In this document: positions 1-56,870 of the stretch, piece by piece
Numbering within the stretch: the stretch's first letter is position 1
Layout: the number at the start of each line of letters is the position of its first letter
Origin: a virus
Lineage: Duplodnaviria > Caudoviricetes
Direction: 5' to 3' (one strand)
Length of the DNA: 56,870 nucleotides
IMG/VR virus record: IMGVR_UViG_3300037470_000663
Location: 1 to 56,870 of that record
Notes under the pieces: generated by a model
What the model saw: the letters and a program-made list of their open reading frames with translations, nothing else
The model's database searches: none
Told to the model about the DNA's origin: nothing
Position numbers and translations under genes: made by a program

Positions 1-94
1 CCGACTGTTCTGCCACTGAACTATGGTCCCAAATGGGTTGTAAAATTAAGTGGTGGAGCTAATAGCTGGAGGTAACAAATAAGCTTGGAAGGCT
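1..94. repeat. 94-bp exact direct repeat, copy 1 (copy 2 at 56310..56403)
   Basis: ccgactgttc...aagcttggaaggct is identical in both places and diverges at 95 (t) versus 56404 (a). It may extend left of the window. Confidence 0.97.
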
Positions 95-100
95 TATTTG
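76..100. other. attP: attP core: CAAATAAGC-TTGGAAG-GCTTATTTG
   Basis: Perfect 9-bp inverted repeat around a 7-bp spacer equal to the tRNA-Gly anticodon loop (CTTCCAA on -); 50 bp from the integrase stop. This is typical tyrosine-recombinase core geometry. Confidence 0.88.
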
Positions 101-150
101 ATAGCCCGTCCGCTGACCTCTGGATTTTTCAAGCTAACGGCCGTTTCTTT

Positions 151-1122
151 TCACTCTTCATCACCGCGCGCAAACAATCGCTTGATCGCCCGGTCCTCCA
201 CCCGCCCCGACTCCTCACCAAAATAAAATTCCTGAAGGTCTTGTTGCTGCAAGCGGACATAATTTTCAGACGTCGTTTTGATGTCGCTGTGGCCCAGCAG
301 CTTGCTGACCACGTTGAGCGGCATTCCGTCCTTCAGACGGGTTATGGCGAAAGCGTGGCGGGCAGCGTGGGCGTTGGCTGGTTCGTTTTGGGGGATTTTG
401 GCAGCCTGCTTTAACTTCCAGAAGATCCCGCTGATGTACTCGGTAGAGATTGGCTTGCCGGTCAGTGTGTTCACAAACAGCATGTCATGATCCGGCACCT
501 TCAGGACATGCAGCAGGTTGGCCCGAATTTCCAGCCAGCTGCACAGCAGCAGCCCGGTCGAGTGTAGGCCGTAGTAAATTTGTTCCTTTTTGTGCCTGCG
601 TCCCTTCTCCCAGGCCCGCGCCGCCACGTGCAGTTCGCCATCTTCAGTCAGCCAGCAGTGCGTGGTAGAGATACGCATCGAGTTCAAGCCCCCCACCCTG
701 GCCCCGCCTTCGTAAACCCATTTCACTAAAAGGGCATCGCGCACACCAGTGGCGGCCATGAGCTTGTGATGATTGCTATCGCTCACTCGCTTCACGCCCT
801 TCGTTTCCTCTTCGTAATCAAAGTTGACCGGCGGTACCTGGTGGCCCATCGCCTCTAGACGGGAGAAGACACCGGCCACCCCGCGTTTGTAGTTGTTGCG
901 GGTGGCCGGGCTCAGCGTCACCAGGTCCTCAATTTCATCTTGAAAATGGTCCAGGTGAGCGGCCGTCACCACGTCCAGCCGCATATCGCCAACAATTTCG
1001 GCCAGGCGGTGCATTGAATTTTCGTACCATTTTTTTGTAGACGCGACGACTCGCGGCCGTTTTTTAGAGATACGGCCGCTGGCAATGACGGCGCATTCAG
1101 AGAGGAGTAGAGATTCACGCAT
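151..1122 (-). CDS. int: Tyrosine integrase (XerC/D-like)
   Basis: Catalytic motifs GARVG, HAARH, LLGHSD and ENY; adjacent to attP. Start set at the ATG after GGAG (the ORF track extends it to 1281). Confidence 0.93.
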   Translation of the reverse strand: MRESLLLSECAVIASGRISKKRPRVVASTKKWYENSMHRLAEIVGDMRLDVVTAAHLDHFQDEIEDLVTLSPATRNNYKRGVAGVFSRLEAMGHQVPPVNFDYEEETKGVKRVSDSNHHKLMAATGVRDALLVKWVYEGGARVGGLNSMRISTTHCWLTEDGELHVAARAWEKGRRHKKEQIYYGLHSTGLLLCSWLEIRANLLHVLKVPDHDMLFVNTLTGKPISTEYISGIFWKLKQAAKIPQNEPANAHAARHAFAITRLKDGMPLNVVSKLLGHSDIKTTSENYVRLQQQDLQEFYFGEESGRVEDRAIKRLFARGDEE

Positions 1123-1284
1123 AGGACATCGCTCCATGATCGAGTATTTGGTTAATTGCTCACCTAGTGACTTTCCGGCCGGTGCTTTTGGCCGTAAGGG
1201 ATTGCGCCGTTGGTCTGGCGGCCCGGCGCATCCTGATTTTATCCAACTACCGCCAACGTGCAAACAGCATAGCAGAATCAAAAT

Positions 1285-1602
1285 ATGATCACACTTTCGG
1301 AGCTAAACGGGATGAATTTCGGAGCGATTGCGGTAACGGCCGTTCTCCTCTTCCTTTTCGGCCTGGCCTTCAACCAGCTCATTAACTACCTGCACCGGCG
1401 CGGCCTGAATGATGGCTTTGTCTGGCTGGAGGTGGTGGTGGGTGATGGCGTGGTCATTATCGCCGCTGGCTTCACCCTGGGCTGGGGCGCGGCGCTGCTG
1501 CTGTTTATTTATTTTGCCGCTGCCGGGTTCTGGATGGCGGCCGGGGACATCTGGCGGCACGTCCGGGCGCGGCAGATGGAAGCGCAGGAGCGGGAATTGT
1601 AA
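1285..1602 (+). CDS. Small multi-pass membrane protein
   Basis: About three hydrophobic segments; abuts the next ORF. Confidence 0.7.
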   Translation: MITLSELNGMNFGAIAVTAVLLFLFGLAFNQLINYLHRRGLNDGFVWLEVVVGDGVVIIAAGFTLGWGAALLLFIYFAAAGFWMAAGDIWRHVRARQMEAQEREL

Positions 1603-1827
1603 ATGACCGCACCCCGCGAATGGCCGAACAATCAGCGAATTTACCGTGACCGGGCCGCTGAGGAGACGGCAGCGGCGGAGCGGTACCTACGGAAATTATT
1701 AGCCAGGGTACAGGCGGGGCAGTATACCCGTCATGGCTTGGAGATAGATCTGTTGACATCATGCAATCATTTATTGGCAGCGCTGCGGCATCTGGAAAAA
1801 GCCGGGGCGCAAACGGAACCGGAATGA
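1603..1827 (+). CDS. Hypothetical protein
   Basis: Starts directly after the upstream stop; ATGA overlap with the next ORF. Confidence 0.6.
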   Translation: MTAPREWPNNQRIYRDRAAEETAAAERYLRKLLARVQAGQYTRHGLEIDLLTSCNHLLAALRHLEKAGAQTEPE

Positions 1828-1952
1828 CACCGCTTATGTACTGGATCGCGCTGGCTGTACTGATGGTGCTGGCGGGCGCGCTGGTCGTGGCGGCCTTGGT
1901 GATGTCTGGCCGGATGAGTGCGGCCGAGGAAACGCGCGAGTGTGAGGATTGA
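1824..1952 (+). CDS. Small single-TM peptide (MTPLMYWIALAVL...)
   Basis: ATGA coupling; hydrophobic helix. Confidence 0.5.
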   Translation: MTPLMYWIALAVLMVLAGALVVAALVMSGRMSAAEETRECED

Positions 1953-2069
1953 CCCGCAAGCGTATTTACTACTGCGCCCACCACCCTGCCCGCCGCGCCG
2001 CAATCTGGTATCGCTGGAAACGGCCGTATCGCTGGCTCTGCTGGGAATGTTTTTATCGGAGATATCACT

Positions 2070-2327
2070 ATGACAAGCAACGCAAAACCAGGCACGAGAG
2101 CAGTACCCATTGTACAGAACGGGCAACCCGCCAAATGGACCGAGCATAAGCTATGGGCCGAAATGCGGGCCGTCGGCTGGCAGGCGTTGGGCCAGGGCGT
2201 ATGGACGCATCCTGATTGCCCTGGCTACCAGCTGCAATTGTTTGCTTATGACGCGGCGAACGGCCGTGAGCTGTGGCACCGGTATGCGGAGGAGCGGGCG
2301 GTGCCGAGGGCGGAGGATTTTATTTAG
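2070..2327 (+). CDS. Hypothetical protein
   Basis: GGAG RBS before ATG; normal composition. Confidence 0.6.
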   Translation: MTSNAKPGTRAVPIVQNGQPAKWTEHKLWAEMRAVGWQALGQGVWTHPDCPGYQLQLFAYDAANGRELWHRYAEERAVPRAEDFI

Positions 2328-2336
2328 GTGTTGGGG

Positions 2337-2525
2337 CTATCGCTTTGGCGGGCGGCCTGGGTTGCGTCGGTTTCTCTTGAAGGCTTCCAGGTCCGAGCGG
2401 GTGATGATCCAATCTCGCCCCAGCTTCTGGCCCAAATAACCTTCTTGGCAGTGCTGGCGGAGTGTGGTGACGGCAATACCTAATTCTTTGGCGGCTGTCT
2501 TAATGTCCATAATATCGTTACTCAT
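2337..2525 (-). CDS. Small HTH DNA-binding protein (excisionase/MerR-like HTH_17)
   Basis: AAKELGIAVTTLRQHC...GQKLGRDWIITRSDL winged-HTH pattern; basic GRPPK tail. Confidence 0.8.
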   Translation of the reverse strand: MSNDIMDIKTAAKELGIAVTTLRQHCQEGYLGQKLGRDWIITRSDLEAFKRNRRNPGRPPKR

Positions 2526-2563
2526 GACGTAATTTTAGGGGCTATGATGAATAAAATAAATAG

Positions 2564-2745
2564 TTGCATGCGACGTAAATATATGCTAAGATGTTCTTGT
2601 CGGCTGGCTACCGATGAATTAGGCAATTAGGGTAACGACACAATGAGACACTTGTCCATTAGACTGGCGATTTGTAGAGCAGTTTAGCCACTGTTAAATA
2701 AATCGTTACCCGCCAAATCGCCAGTTTAATGCACAGGTGTTTTTG
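2564..2745 (+). promoter_or_regulatory. Sigma70-like promoter plus structured antisense/attenuator leader of the HNH gene
   Basis: TTGCAT-17-TAAGAT with TGn. TGGCTA (2605) and GGGTAACGA (2630) are complementary to TAGCCA (2685) and TCGTTACCC (2703) inside the long hairpin 2648..2740, which is followed by a T run. Confidence 0.7.
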
Positions 2746-2761
2746 CTTCTCTGGAGACAAC

Positions 2762-3115
2762 ATGGTAGACACGGCGTTTTTGTGCAGGCAGTGCGGTGGG
2801 AAAATTCAGGCAAAGAACGAGATGGCTTACAAGCATCTTCTGAACGGTAACATAACCCTCTGTGATACATGCCGCAGAGGGGGAAACGTCCGTCACTGGA
2901 CGAAGGACGTTTATCAAGAGTATCTCGCTTCCAGCCAGTGGAGAACACGGCGGGAGCGGGCGCTGAAACTGGCGGGGCATCGCTGCCAGGTATGCAGCGG
3001 GAACGGCCGTATGCATGTTCACCACAACACTTACGAGCGGTTGGGCCATGAGCTTGACCGCGATTTGCTGGTAGTGTGCGAGGCTCATCACAGAATGATT
3101 CATAGTATCAAGTGA
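2762..3115 (+). CDS. HNH endonuclease with N-terminal Zn finger
   Basis: CRQC/CDTC, then YLASSQW...CQVC...HVHHNTY...CEAHHRMIH; GGAG RBS. Confidence 0.85.
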   Translation: MVDTAFLCRQCGGKIQAKNEMAYKHLLNGNITLCDTCRRGGNVRHWTKDVYQEYLASSQWRTRRERALKLAGHRCQVCSGNGRMHVHHNTYERLGHELDRDLLVVCEAHHRMIHSIK

Positions 3116-10199: not shown

Positions 10200-10356
10200 C
10201 CATTTGCGAAGATTGCGGAGACGATTGCCGCCGCCGCAAGCGCTGCCCCAGCTGCGGGTGCTTGATTTGCTCTTGGTGTTGGCACCATACGCATAAAATA
10301 TATGTCGAAGAAGAAAGGCGACGGGAGCGGGAAACGGCCGTTTCCCAGGAGGCGAC

Positions 10357-37779: not shown

Positions 37780-38356
37780 CCTCGCCACATCCAACGATGC
37801 GGACGTCTAACTTGACACCATCGCCAGAATCGGCGATACTTACCGGCGCCCATCGTCACAAACAACGATGAGATCCCATCGTCACAAATGACGAGCATCG
37901 AGCATCGTCAAAACCGGCGATAGGATCCGGAAAAGGAAACAATCATGATAGAACTCGGCAGATACAACGGCGGAAAAGGCAACGTATTCCGGCAGATCAT
38001 CAATGAGATGCCGCCCCACAAAACGTATGTTGAAGCGTTTGTTGGTGGCGGCTCCGTGGCCCTCAACAAACTTCCGGCTCAACGCAACATCCTGATAGAC
38101 AAAGACCCGGAAGTGATCGAGACTTGGCTGAGCCACCTCGCCACAAATGACGCTGCTGCAGCAACGTCACAAATGACGATGCGATATCCCCTCGTCACAA
38201 ACGGCGATAACCTCGACGACCTCGCCAATTTCAACGATGCTGCACCATCATCAAATCTAACGATGCCAGCTGTCACCGCCATTCCCAGCGATAGCACCCG
38301 GGCAACTATCGTCAAAAATGACGATGCCTCCGGGCACATCGTCACCTTCGACGATG
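37780..38356. repeat. Array of 13 imperfect 20-bp palindromes (consensus CMTCGYCA-N4-YRRCGATR)
   Basis: Starts at 37780, 37819, 37851, 37877, 37903 (upstream of gene) and 38136, 38162, 38190, 38220, 38246, 38274, 38307, 38337 (inside gene). Confidence 0.93.
37812..37840 (+). promoter_or_regulatory. Sigma70 promoter of the methyltransferase, overlapped by repeat 2
   Basis: TTGACA (37812)-17-GATACT (37835). Confidence 0.7.
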
Positions 38357-55418: not shown

Positions 55419-55740
55419 AAATCCTCCTGTGTCTAATAACATCAGCATCTACGGCCGTCGATAACCAAACGCGTACGGCCGTTTTGCAAACTGGCGGCGG
55501 GTTTTTATTAACCCAACACTTCACCAACAAACTGTGTTTTCCCCGCCGCCTTTTTCTTTGGTTCCTACGGCCGTCTTCCCCGGCTGTGTGAATACCCCTC
55601 TCTTCCAGCCAGCGGCCGTTTGTCCTCTCCGAGAAACGGCCGTTGGCAAACTTTATTCGTGACTTCAGGAGAAGCAATGCATCAAAAAGAGATCGTCATA
55701 ATAAAAAATGGTTTGGTAGACGACAGCGCCAGGCGTTCCA

Positions 55741-56073: not shown

Positions 56074-56192
56074 ATTTCAATCCCTCATGGGATTCTATTT
56101 ACAAAATCAGCCCGGCCGAACGGCCGACAAACCACCGGCCGGGCTTGAACGGATGAACCTTAACAATCAAATACTTGATCATTAACGCCAAG

Positions 56193-56263
56193 AGCGGGCA
56201 CCGGGAATCAAACCCGGCTCGCCTGATTGGAAGTCAGGAGCATTATCACTATGCTATGCCCGC
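56193..56263 (-). tRNA. Phage tRNA-Gly(TCC), CCA not encoded
   Basis: GCGGGCA/TGCCCGC acceptor stem, GCAT/ATGC D stem, CCTGA-CTTCCAA-TCAGG anticodon arm, CCGGG/CCCGG T stem, U73. Confidence 0.9.
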
Positions 56264-56264
56264 A

Positions 56265-56339
56265 TGGTGGGACCAGCAGGGATCGAACCTGCGACGAATC
56301 GGTTATGAGCCGACTGTTCTGCCACTGAACTATGGTCCC
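56265..56339 (-). tRNA. Phage tRNA with CAT anticodon (probably Ile2, possibly elongator Met)
   Basis: GGGACCA/TGGTCCC acceptor stem, GTCGG-CTCATAA-CCGAT, TTCGATC, ACCA end; lacks initiator features. Confidence 0.9.
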
Positions 56340-56403
56340 AAATGGGTTGTAAAATTAAGTGGTGGAGCTAATAGCTGGAGGTAACAAATAAGCTTGGAAG
56401 GCT
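56310..56403. repeat. 94-bp direct repeat, copy 2
   Basis: Identical to 1..94. Confidence 0.97.
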
Positions 56404-56409
56404 ATTGTG
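56385..56409. other. Hybrid att site (phage-host junction)
   Basis: Phage arm CAAATAAGC + TTGGAAG + host arm GCTATTGTG. Confidence 0.85.
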
Positions 56410-56430
56410 TTACCCCTACACCACTGCCGC
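56391..56430 (-). pseudogene. 5' half of host tRNA-Gly(TCC), cut at the anticodon arm
   Basis: GCGGCAG-TG-GTGT-AGGGGTA-ACAC-A-ATAGC-CTTCCAA-GCT; no T arm or acceptor partner follows. Confidence 0.85.
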
Positions 56431-56498
56431 ATGCCCGTAATCGGTAATCCGTAATCAAAAAACTGATCACTGGTTACTGTTCACCGATTACCGCACAG

Positions 56499-56572
56499 TC
56501 GGGGCGGCCGGATTCGAACCGACGACCTCTCGGACCCAAACCGAGCGCTCTACCAAGCTGAGCTACGCCCCG
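56499..56572 (-). tRNA. Host tRNA-Pro(TGG)
   Basis: CGGGGCG/CGCCCCG acceptor stem, CTCGG-TTTGGGT-CCGAG, GGTTCGAATCC. Confidence 0.96.
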
Positions 56573-56591
56573 AATTGCGTAACGACACGGT

Positions 56592-56620
56592 AGTATACTG
56601 TTGCTGTTACATGGCGTCAA
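56592..56620 (-). promoter_or_regulatory. Host tRNA operon promoter
   Basis: TTGACG-17-TATACT, about 20 bp upstream of tRNA-Pro. Confidence 0.7.
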
Positions 56621-56637
56621 CCACGAAACAAGGTTTT

Positions 56638-56870
56638 TCAGCTGCCATCATAATGGGTGTAGGGTTTGGGCGAATCATCCTGGCTTTGCCGCCAATGATG
56701 CACGACCATACGAAAAATATCCGATTCCGTGATAATGCCCACAAGTGTCCCGGTGGCATCGACCACGGGCAAACCGCTAATCTTGCGAGCTAGCATAATG
56801 TCGGCCGCTTCTCCAATGGTGGCGTCTGGTGAAACAAATTGGGGCGCTTTGCTCATCACCTGACCAAGAT
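56638..56870 (-). CDS. Host CBS-domain protein (C-terminal part)
   Basis: VSPDATIGEAADIML..KISGLPVVD..G.LVGIITESDIF. Confidence 0.92.
   Translation of the reverse strand, partial: LGQVMSKAPQFVSPDATIGEAADIMLARKISGLPVVDATGTLVGIITESDIFRMVVHHWRQSQDDSPKPYTHYDGS

Follow-up and report, generated by a model that had tools for sequence, protein, structure and literature searches.

Probable tRNA-dependent lysogeny in Chloroflexota: a tailed phage that breaks a mid-operon tRNA-Gly(UCC) gene and carries two tRNA genes beside its attachment core

When a phage integrates into a host tRNA gene and does not give back the half that it displaces, what takes the place of the broken tRNA? This question is posed by the right end of the window, by which we mean the whole 56,870-bp stretch of viral DNA analysed here. 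Read on the minus strand, this end carries in succession a host promoter-like site, a tRNA-Pro, the 5′ half of a tRNA-Gly, a spacer, a tRNA-CAU, a second tRNA-Gly and a hairpin. Three complete tRNA genes lie on this strand according to both ARAGORN and Rfam, with scores of 63.7–68.3 bits under the Rfam tRNA model, whose cut-off is 29 bits. The features of the right end are as follows:

56638..56868, minus strand: 3′ end of a CBS-domain protein gene in the host flank (from translation; tblastn, 67–79% amino acid identity upstream of the relatives' tRNA-Pro)
56592..56620, minus strand: promoter-like site of the host tRNA operon, TTGACG-17-TATACT (consensus match; putative function)
56498..56572, minus strand: host tRNA-Pro(UGG) (ARAGORN; Rfam 65.7 bits; identical to the tRNA-Pro of several relatives)
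56391..56430, minus strand: truncated host tRNA-Gly(UCC), nt 1–40, the attR junction (Rfam 20.4 bits; no ARAGORN call)
56391..56403, minus strand: common core AGCCTTCCAAGCT at the host–phage joint; the window has one further exact copy
56340..56390, minus strand: spacer of the phage arm, 51 nt, non-tRNA, between the core and tRNA-CAU
56265..56339, minus strand: phage tRNA with anticodon CAU (typed as Met by ARAGORN; Rfam 68.3 bits; cloverleaf fold)
56192..56263, minus strand: phage tRNA-Gly(UCC), the putative replacement (ARAGORN; Rfam 63.7 bits; cloverleaf fold)
56107..56127, minus strand: terminator-like hairpin plus T run, downstream of the phage tRNA-Gly (consensus match only)

Which of these parts belong to the host can be read from its relatives. 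An exact 31-nt pattern of the half gene retrieved 19 loci from species-representative genomes; except for one titled Phormidesmis, these are MAGs of Chloroflexota that bear the titles Anaerolineae, Ardenticatenaceae, Promineifilaceae or Ca. Leptofilum. At 19 of 19 loci the pattern sits in an intact 72-nt tRNA-Gly(UCC) after a tRNA-Pro(UGG), and at 18 of them a tRNA-CAU lies downstream, which defines a canonical operon of the order Pro-Gly-CAU; the exception is L005, an 8-kb locus without a tRNA-CAU call. Positions 56430 to 56391 of the window reproduce the first 40 nt of this intact gene with 100% identity to all 19 relatives, from the 5′ strand of the acceptor stem to three nucleotides beyond the anticodon loop, and are unrelated to it beyond nt 40. 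The half gene is undecayed (40 of 41 positions match the canonical gene), the T arm and the 3′ acceptor strand are absent after nt 40, and the phage arm that follows the core agrees with the canonical 3′ half at 10 of 31 positions. Upstream, the CBS-domain gene, tRNA-Pro and tRNA-Gly are syntenic in the relatives, the best match of the flank being ~80% identical at the DNA level, and a TTGAC-N(16–18)-TATACT-like site recurs at an equal distance from tRNA-Pro in all 25 loci in which a tRNA-Pro anchor string was found; promoter-like and terminator-like sites are consensus matches here, the counts of which do not exceed those in shuffled sequences. Since the half gene matches the relatives up to nt 40 and its flank is syntenic, we take 56404–56870 to be host DNA, and by the same comparison the host tRNA-Gly(UCC) is cut three bases past its anticodon loop.

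The host–phage joint (56403/56404, known from one assembly) coincides with a common core of 13 bp, AGCCTTCCAAGC T, which is all that the attachment region of the phage has in common with the host gene. This core is composed of the anticodon loop CTTCCAA and three base pairs of stem on either side, and it places the joint at nt 28–40 of the host tRNA-Gly(UCC), an attB-type position. The counterpart of the core is found at the opposite end of the window, adjoining the integrase gene:

1..94, minus strand: the phage arm once more, made up of the first 30 nt of tRNA-CAU, the spacer and the core; an attP-type junction, 100% identical to 56310–56403
76..100, minus strand: hairpin at the attP core, formed by a perfect inverted repeat of 9 bp, CAAATAAGC / GCTTATTTG, on either side of CTTCCAA (from sequence and fold)
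151..1281, minus strand: tyrosine integrase (PF00589, E 3.2e-21), its 3′ end 56 nt from the core copy at 82–94

The two copies of the arm, of which the one at window 1–94 had been overlooked in the first-pass annotation, part company at positions 95 and 56404, where the left copy continues into the integrase arm. An inverted repeat around a 7-bp overlap is the layout expected of the core sites of tyrosine recombinases. Because the left copy carries the 5′ end of the phage-type tRNA-CAU and lacks the 3′ half of the host tRNA-Gly, the left end is best read as an attP-type joint, in which integrase arm, core and phage tRNA arm follow one another as in a circular or tandem genome. It follows that the virus record mixes an integrated junction on the right with a circular or tandem form on the left and that the window holds no attL of its own phage. 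When an attL was simulated from the integrase arm of the window, the core and the 3′ half of a relative's gene, no tRNA-Gly was called in any of four trials, made with four relatives, and only the downstream tRNA-CAU was detected.

Sequencing runs bear on the left end to differing degrees. Run X1, which contains 96% of the sampled words of the window, yields a Logan contig that covers window 1–2896 without differences, overhangs position 1 by 685 nt and passes 94/95 unbroken, with neither loose ends nor joints at the left end; this weakly favours the attP-type form as the commoner one in the X1 sample. Run X2 gave no match at the window's left end, and run X3 gave just two short pieces of a relative's genes there. 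Window 1978–2326 is matched with 23 differences by a 21-kb contig of depth 57 from X3, another sediment run, with unrelated flanks, so that a gene related to this segment circulates in another element or organism.

Besides the integrase, the window codes for a helicase of the DnaB type, an amidase, a capsid protein, the large terminase and a DNA methylase. No close relative of the phage arm or the integrase came up in the viral and phage collections and metagenome contigs that we scanned: exact patterns of the phage arm gave 0 matches in viral contigs and 0 in metagenome contigs, the integrase found no relative in viral contigs and none by tblastn in GenBank phages, and 105 pattern matches to the integrase in metagenome contigs left 0 confirmed. 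Among the relatives, the integrase produced weak C-terminal matches only, in five; at class level it matched in 1 of 401 genomes, where the locus (L065) is without a tRNA. The window is also rich in short repeats. A 10-bp palindrome, AACGGCCGTT, is present in 30 copies, where shuffles lead one to expect 0.11 (e.g. at 136–145, 10333–10342 and 55635–55644), and the 8-mer ACGGCCGT occurs 135 times; the palindrome is frequent in loci of the host clade as well (~3.5 per 10 kb) and is thus highly iterated in the phage and its presumed hosts alike. At 37853–38185 there are three direct copies of a ~48-nt unit with TCGTCACAAATGACG-like inverted motifs (family D8), which might serve the phage as operator or origin repeats.

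What, then, does the phage arm bring to the broken operon? The phage encodes two tRNAs only: one has the anticodon of the broken gene, the other that of the gene following it in the host operon. Both lie within 52 nt of the core and are co-oriented with the host operon, tRNA-Gly beginning one nucleotide after tRNA-CAU ends, so that the order of the cassette, CAU-Gly, is inverted relative to the Gly-CAU of the host. Measured against 30 relatives, the phage tRNA-CAU is 70–80% identical to the CAU tRNA of the host operon, with the same anticodon arm, and the phage tRNA-Gly is 61–83% identical to the host tRNA-Gly(UCC) genes. A simple scan detected no sigma-70-like site between the half gene and the cassette, which fits transcription of the cassette from the host promoter without proving it. 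The complete genome of a relative, G001 (6.36 Mb), contains 47 tRNA genes by Rfam and ARAGORN, in which every anticodon is single except CAT (three); because there is thus just one tRNA-Gly(TCC) in G001, dependence of a lysogen on the phage copy for reading GGA is plausible by extrapolation from this relative.

Two details of the tRNAs themselves deserve mention. The phage tRNA-Gly has the D loop AGUGAUA and the T loop UUUGAUU, by which the usual G19–C56 tertiary pair would become A19–U56, possibly a compensated change. In G001 (L034), the CAU tRNA of the operon shares the acceptor stem GGGCCUG/CAGGCCC with tRNA-Ile(GAU), and another CAU tRNA of that genome looks like the initiator (GGG/CCC in the anticodon stem); given the shared acceptor stem, the CAU gene of the operon may encode tRNA-Ile2 instead of tRNA-Met, and so may its phage substitute.

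Much of this arrangement had been anticipated by the first-pass annotation. It had described a host promoter followed by tRNA-Pro and only the 5′ half of a tRNA-Gly(TCC), a phage side without the matching 3′ half, and a replacement whose anticodon stem (CCTGA/TCAGG) differs from that of the host, and on all these points the comparison with the relatives agrees with it. Its complete tRNA-Gly about 130 bp further on is likewise present, starting 128 nt past the half gene; however, 75 nt of what was taken as a gap are a missed tRNA-CAT. Its proposal that the phage supplies a replacement therefore stands for tRNA-Gly but has to be widened, as two tRNAs (CAU and Gly) are replaced and not one.

Taken together, we consider it probable, and hold with good confidence, that this 56.3-kb temperate tailed phage of an Anaerolineae host from the neighbourhood of Promineifilaceae and Ardenticatenaceae uses tRNA-dependent lysogeny. 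In the proposed course of events, the tyrosine integrase would bring about recombination between attP and the anticodon stem-loop of the tRNA-Gly(UCC) gene of the host, the middle gene of the Pro-Gly-CAU operon. Because the core comprises only 13 bp, neither junction would hold a whole tRNA-Gly: the 5′ half of the host gene would remain where it is, downstream of the operon promoter, and its 3′ half together with the downstream tRNA-CAU would be displaced by ~56 kb, parting the latter from its promoter. The phage arm that comes to lie beside the 5′ half would supply, reading in the same direction as the operon, tRNA-CAU and tRNA-Gly(UCC) with a terminator-like hairpin after them, and since the cassette is co-oriented behind the host promoter, that promoter would transcribe tRNA-Pro, the remnant, tRNA-CAU and tRNA-Gly. 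What the sequences show is the anatomy, the truncation, the core and, in homologous prophages, both junctions; from these we infer that the host promoter drives the cassette, that the phage tRNAs are functional and that the lysogen depends on them.

Both junctions of such an integration can be inspected in related prophages, for which we searched 167 genomes of the order of G001, including one unpublished genome (G535) on which no specific claim rests. Genome G487 holds both junctions on one contig (C2). Its first junction consists of tRNA-Pro, a tRNA-Gly 5′ half ending in ...CCTTCCAAG, a 104-nt spacer and a divergent tRNA-Gly(UCC); an interior of ~44.9 kb follows with a large terminase, a Mu-like portal and protease and a GH25 lysozyme; and at the second junction an integrase homologue of 25% identity is followed by the core, after which come the 3′ half of the host's tRNA-Gly and its tRNA-CAU. 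By tblastx this prophage shares only scattered short matches with the window. In G464 the same two junctions are found on two contigs, with a CAU-Gly cassette beside the 5′ half and, beside the host 3′ half at attL, an integrase 34% identical to that of the window (E 4e-51). Read together, the phage arms of G464 form a perfect 11-bp inverted repeat around CTTCCAA; on the flank of its contig C353, PHROGs and Pfam detected nothing beyond an LTD/tail-like domain and an HTH of the Cro/C1 type, a suggestive result but no decisive one.

In neither of these genomes is there a tRNA-Gly at the real joints, and when the host halves are rejoined in silico at the core, ARAGORN calls a tRNA-Gly in both and the Pro-Gly-CAU operon is rebuilt. 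A reconstruction of attB, which the first-pass annotation had put forward for the window phage, thus returns an intact host gene in these two genomes, and the central idea of that annotation, disrupt-and-replace integration through a short core, is supported by the 13-bp core, the intact gene of the relatives and the tRNA-Gly-free junctions of G487 and G464. A further suggestion, namely that the replacement was recoded to avoid self-targeting, does not hold as a general rule, because the phage-borne tRNA-Gly of G487 and that of G464 each include their own core; that of the window phage shares the 7-nt loop only.

Integrase homologues in G428 and G498 were considered as additional support for targeting of the UCC operon and were rejected, as they adjoin lone tRNA-Gly(CCC) 3′ halves. 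At these loci, L093 (G428:C536) and L089 (G498:C137), the homologues are 26% identical and the 3′ halves start at the anticodon loop TTCCCAA; the integrase family may therefore also target the CCC isoacceptor.

How else could the right end of the window have come about? The host might already have possessed a fixed Pro-remnant-CAU-Gly locus from an older event, in which case the phage would be identical to it over 94 nt or more, and perhaps over the entire cassette, the left end would be a true attL and nothing would have been broken. The repeat is indeed 100% identical and reaches the contig edge, the X1 contig extends 685 nt past window position 1, and reordered operons occur in at least five relatives; in G469 and G428, two of these, host-like genes lie within ~3 kb. 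Against this, the repeated copy contains the phage-type tRNA-CAU, which is only 70–80% identical to the CAU tRNAs of all 30 relatives, and the 5′ half shows no decay, 40 of 41 positions being kept; the unbroken passage of the X1 contig over 94/95 speaks weakly against two equally abundant junctions sharing an arm. Even so, such a locus would itself descend from a disrupt-and-replace event, and we regard this history of the window as unlikely. Still less probable is that the phage tRNAs merely serve lytic growth, by supplying codons or by escape from tRNA-cleaving defences, and that the host has another tRNA-Gly(UCC) or tolerates its loss. Many phages carry tRNAs for such reasons (PMC10865867); yet that two tRNAs should match both affected anticodons out of ~45 by chance amounts, by our own arithmetic, to ~1 in 1000, they abut the core in the same direction as the operon, the prophages of G464 and G487 likewise place a tRNA-Gly(UCC) beside the broken half, and tRNA-Gly(UCC) is single-copy in G001.

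That the joint 56403/56404 is an assembly chimera of free phage and host contig would agree with the attP-type joint that is also present in the window and with the X1 contigs, which favour that form. We nevertheless judge it very improbable, for the joint falls exactly at an identity of 13 bp, below the usual word sizes of assemblers, and at an anticodon loop where the hairpin on the integrase side mimics the host stem-loop, and a joint of the same type occurs within one contig of G487 and in G464. Finally, the hybrid at the junction could work as an odd tRNA with a 7-bp stem AGUGGUG/CACCACU and a long anticodon arm; the centroid fold of 56355–56435 on the minus strand is such a three-way junction, but the fold z-score is only −1.88, so that we ascribe the fold to chance, the 20.4 bits obtained with Rfam lie under the cut-off, and the stem is kept neither in the arms of G464 and G487 nor in other remnants, which makes this last reading hardly credible.

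In classical tRNA-restoring integration, as known from mycobacteriophage L5, P4 and HP1, crossover takes place at the anticodon loop within a symmetric stem, the integrase gene lies beside attP, and the block of identity extends to the tRNA's 3′ end, whereby the gene is rebuilt. The window phage resembles these systems in its anticodon-loop crossover, its symmetric stem and the integrase adjoining attP. It differs from them in that the identity stops 3 nt past the loop and that the phage tRNAs are separate, divergent genes. HP1, which integrates at a tRNA-Leu, reportedly duplicates the downstream tRNA genes of the host operon in its attP; the cassette of the window phage is no such duplication, its CAU and Gly genes being 70–80% and 61–83% identical to those of the 30 relatives compared and its gene order inverted.

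A closer parallel is tRNA-dependent lysogeny, described for actinobacteriophages such as Fionnbharth, LeBron, Gaia, OneUp and Mollymur (Guerrero-Bustamante & Hatfull, mBio 2024; PMC10865867). As defined in that paper, a tyrosine integrase uses an attB in an essential tRNA gene through a core of ~10 bp, the tRNA is not rebuilt, and a phage tRNA of the same isotype is required (PMC10865867). The phages treated there and the window phage have in common the tyrosine integrase, an attB inside a host tRNA gene and a short core (8–17 bp there, 13 bp here). The tRNA at attB is essential and single-copy in those hosts, and for the window phage a single tRNA-Gly(TCC) is read from the relative G001. The differences concern several levels: The host phylum is Chloroflexota instead of Actinobacteria, and tRNA-Gly(UCC) is listed as a target in Table 2 of PMC10865867 only with reconstruction, whereas the window phage targets it without. 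The window phage breaks a gene in mid-operon and brings two tRNAs, the second of which matches the downstream gene cut from its promoter, unlike what is described in PMC10865867, in which the terms "operon", "co-transcribed" and "downstream tRNA" do not occur. Its cassette begins no more than 52 nt from the core behind the host promoter and has no promoter-like site of its own in a simple scan, whereas the tRNA gene of Fionnbharth, according to PMC10865867, is located elsewhere and has its own promoter. Moreover, in the systems of PMC10865867 the phage tRNA is required for lysogeny, whereas the window phage is known from its sequence alone.

Outside Actinobacteria, PMC10865867 names Lj965 as a possible case; this prophage of Lactobacillus johnsonii (Ventura et al. 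2003/2004, as cited in PMC10865867 and PMC3714127) reportedly rebuilds no tRNA at a junction and has four potentially complementing tRNA genes, its host being a Firmicute in contrast to the Chloroflexota host of the window phage. In Sinorhizobium meliloti, prophages like Mesorhizobium phage Lo5R7ANS inactivate a tRNA-Leu(UAG) and carry a tRNA-Leu(UAG); they differ from the window phage with its two tRNAs and its operon by a single tRNA, by their alphaproteobacterial host and by an operon context that does not figure in the available portions of the descriptions (PMC11476347, PMC12429752). Every sequence-level feature of tRNA-dependent lysogeny that can be read from the window is present in it, which is why we regard its phage as a further case. 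The mechanism is thus already known; what is new is the Chloroflexota host, the two-tRNA cassette behind the host operon promoter and the occurrence of reordered operons, and the tRNA-Gly(UCC) target and the mid-operon position are further differences.

These reordered operons, in which tRNA-Pro is followed by a remnant, tRNA-CAU and tRNA-Gly, are present in at least five genomes of the order of G001, namely G469, G498, G428, G464 and G442. At the loci L082 (G469), L081 (G498), L083 (G428) and L098 (G442), CAU and Gly are separated by 1–6 nt. The remnants retain the 5′ part of tRNA-Gly and lack the 3′ part: those that we aligned, four in number, match the 5′ half at 38/41, 32/41, 29/39 and 15/25 positions and the 3′ part at 8–13 of 22–31. 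In G469 and G428, host-like genes are located within ~3 kb of the reordered operon (cytochrome genes in G469), so that no whole prophage lies there, and the cassettes are host-like, 81–90% identical to the canonical genes and not derived from the phage of the window. The flanks of the reordered operons show no tblastx or blastn similarity to the window phage. The reordered operons are possibly leftovers of similar prophages that have since been lost; a purely chromosomal rearrangement may also account for them.

On this basis we tentatively propose a broader picture, which we consider possible rather than established: In this order, phages of one integrase family would carry a plug-in tRNA cassette (Gly or CAU plus Gly) that takes over the promoter of the Pro-Gly-CAU operon, the CAU gene offsetting the polar effect of integration. 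The cassettes would sometimes outlast the prophage, leaving host tRNA genes permanently replaced and reordered, and G469, G428, G498 and G442 would bear the scars of such events.

The window phage would extend tRNA-dependent lysogeny beyond cultured Actinobacteria, rhizobia and lactobacilli to uncultured Chloroflexota of sediment and wastewater-type habitats, and it shows that this trait is recognisable in sequence alone. Prophage finders that rely on a repeated tRNA 3′ half will miss such elements or draw their boundaries wrongly. A break in the middle of a tRNA operon orphans the downstream gene as well, and the phage cassette would answer both problems at once. If the reordered operons are indeed leftovers of prophages, phages would drive the turnover of essential tRNA genes, and the order and sequence of tRNA genes in these hosts would record past lysogeny.
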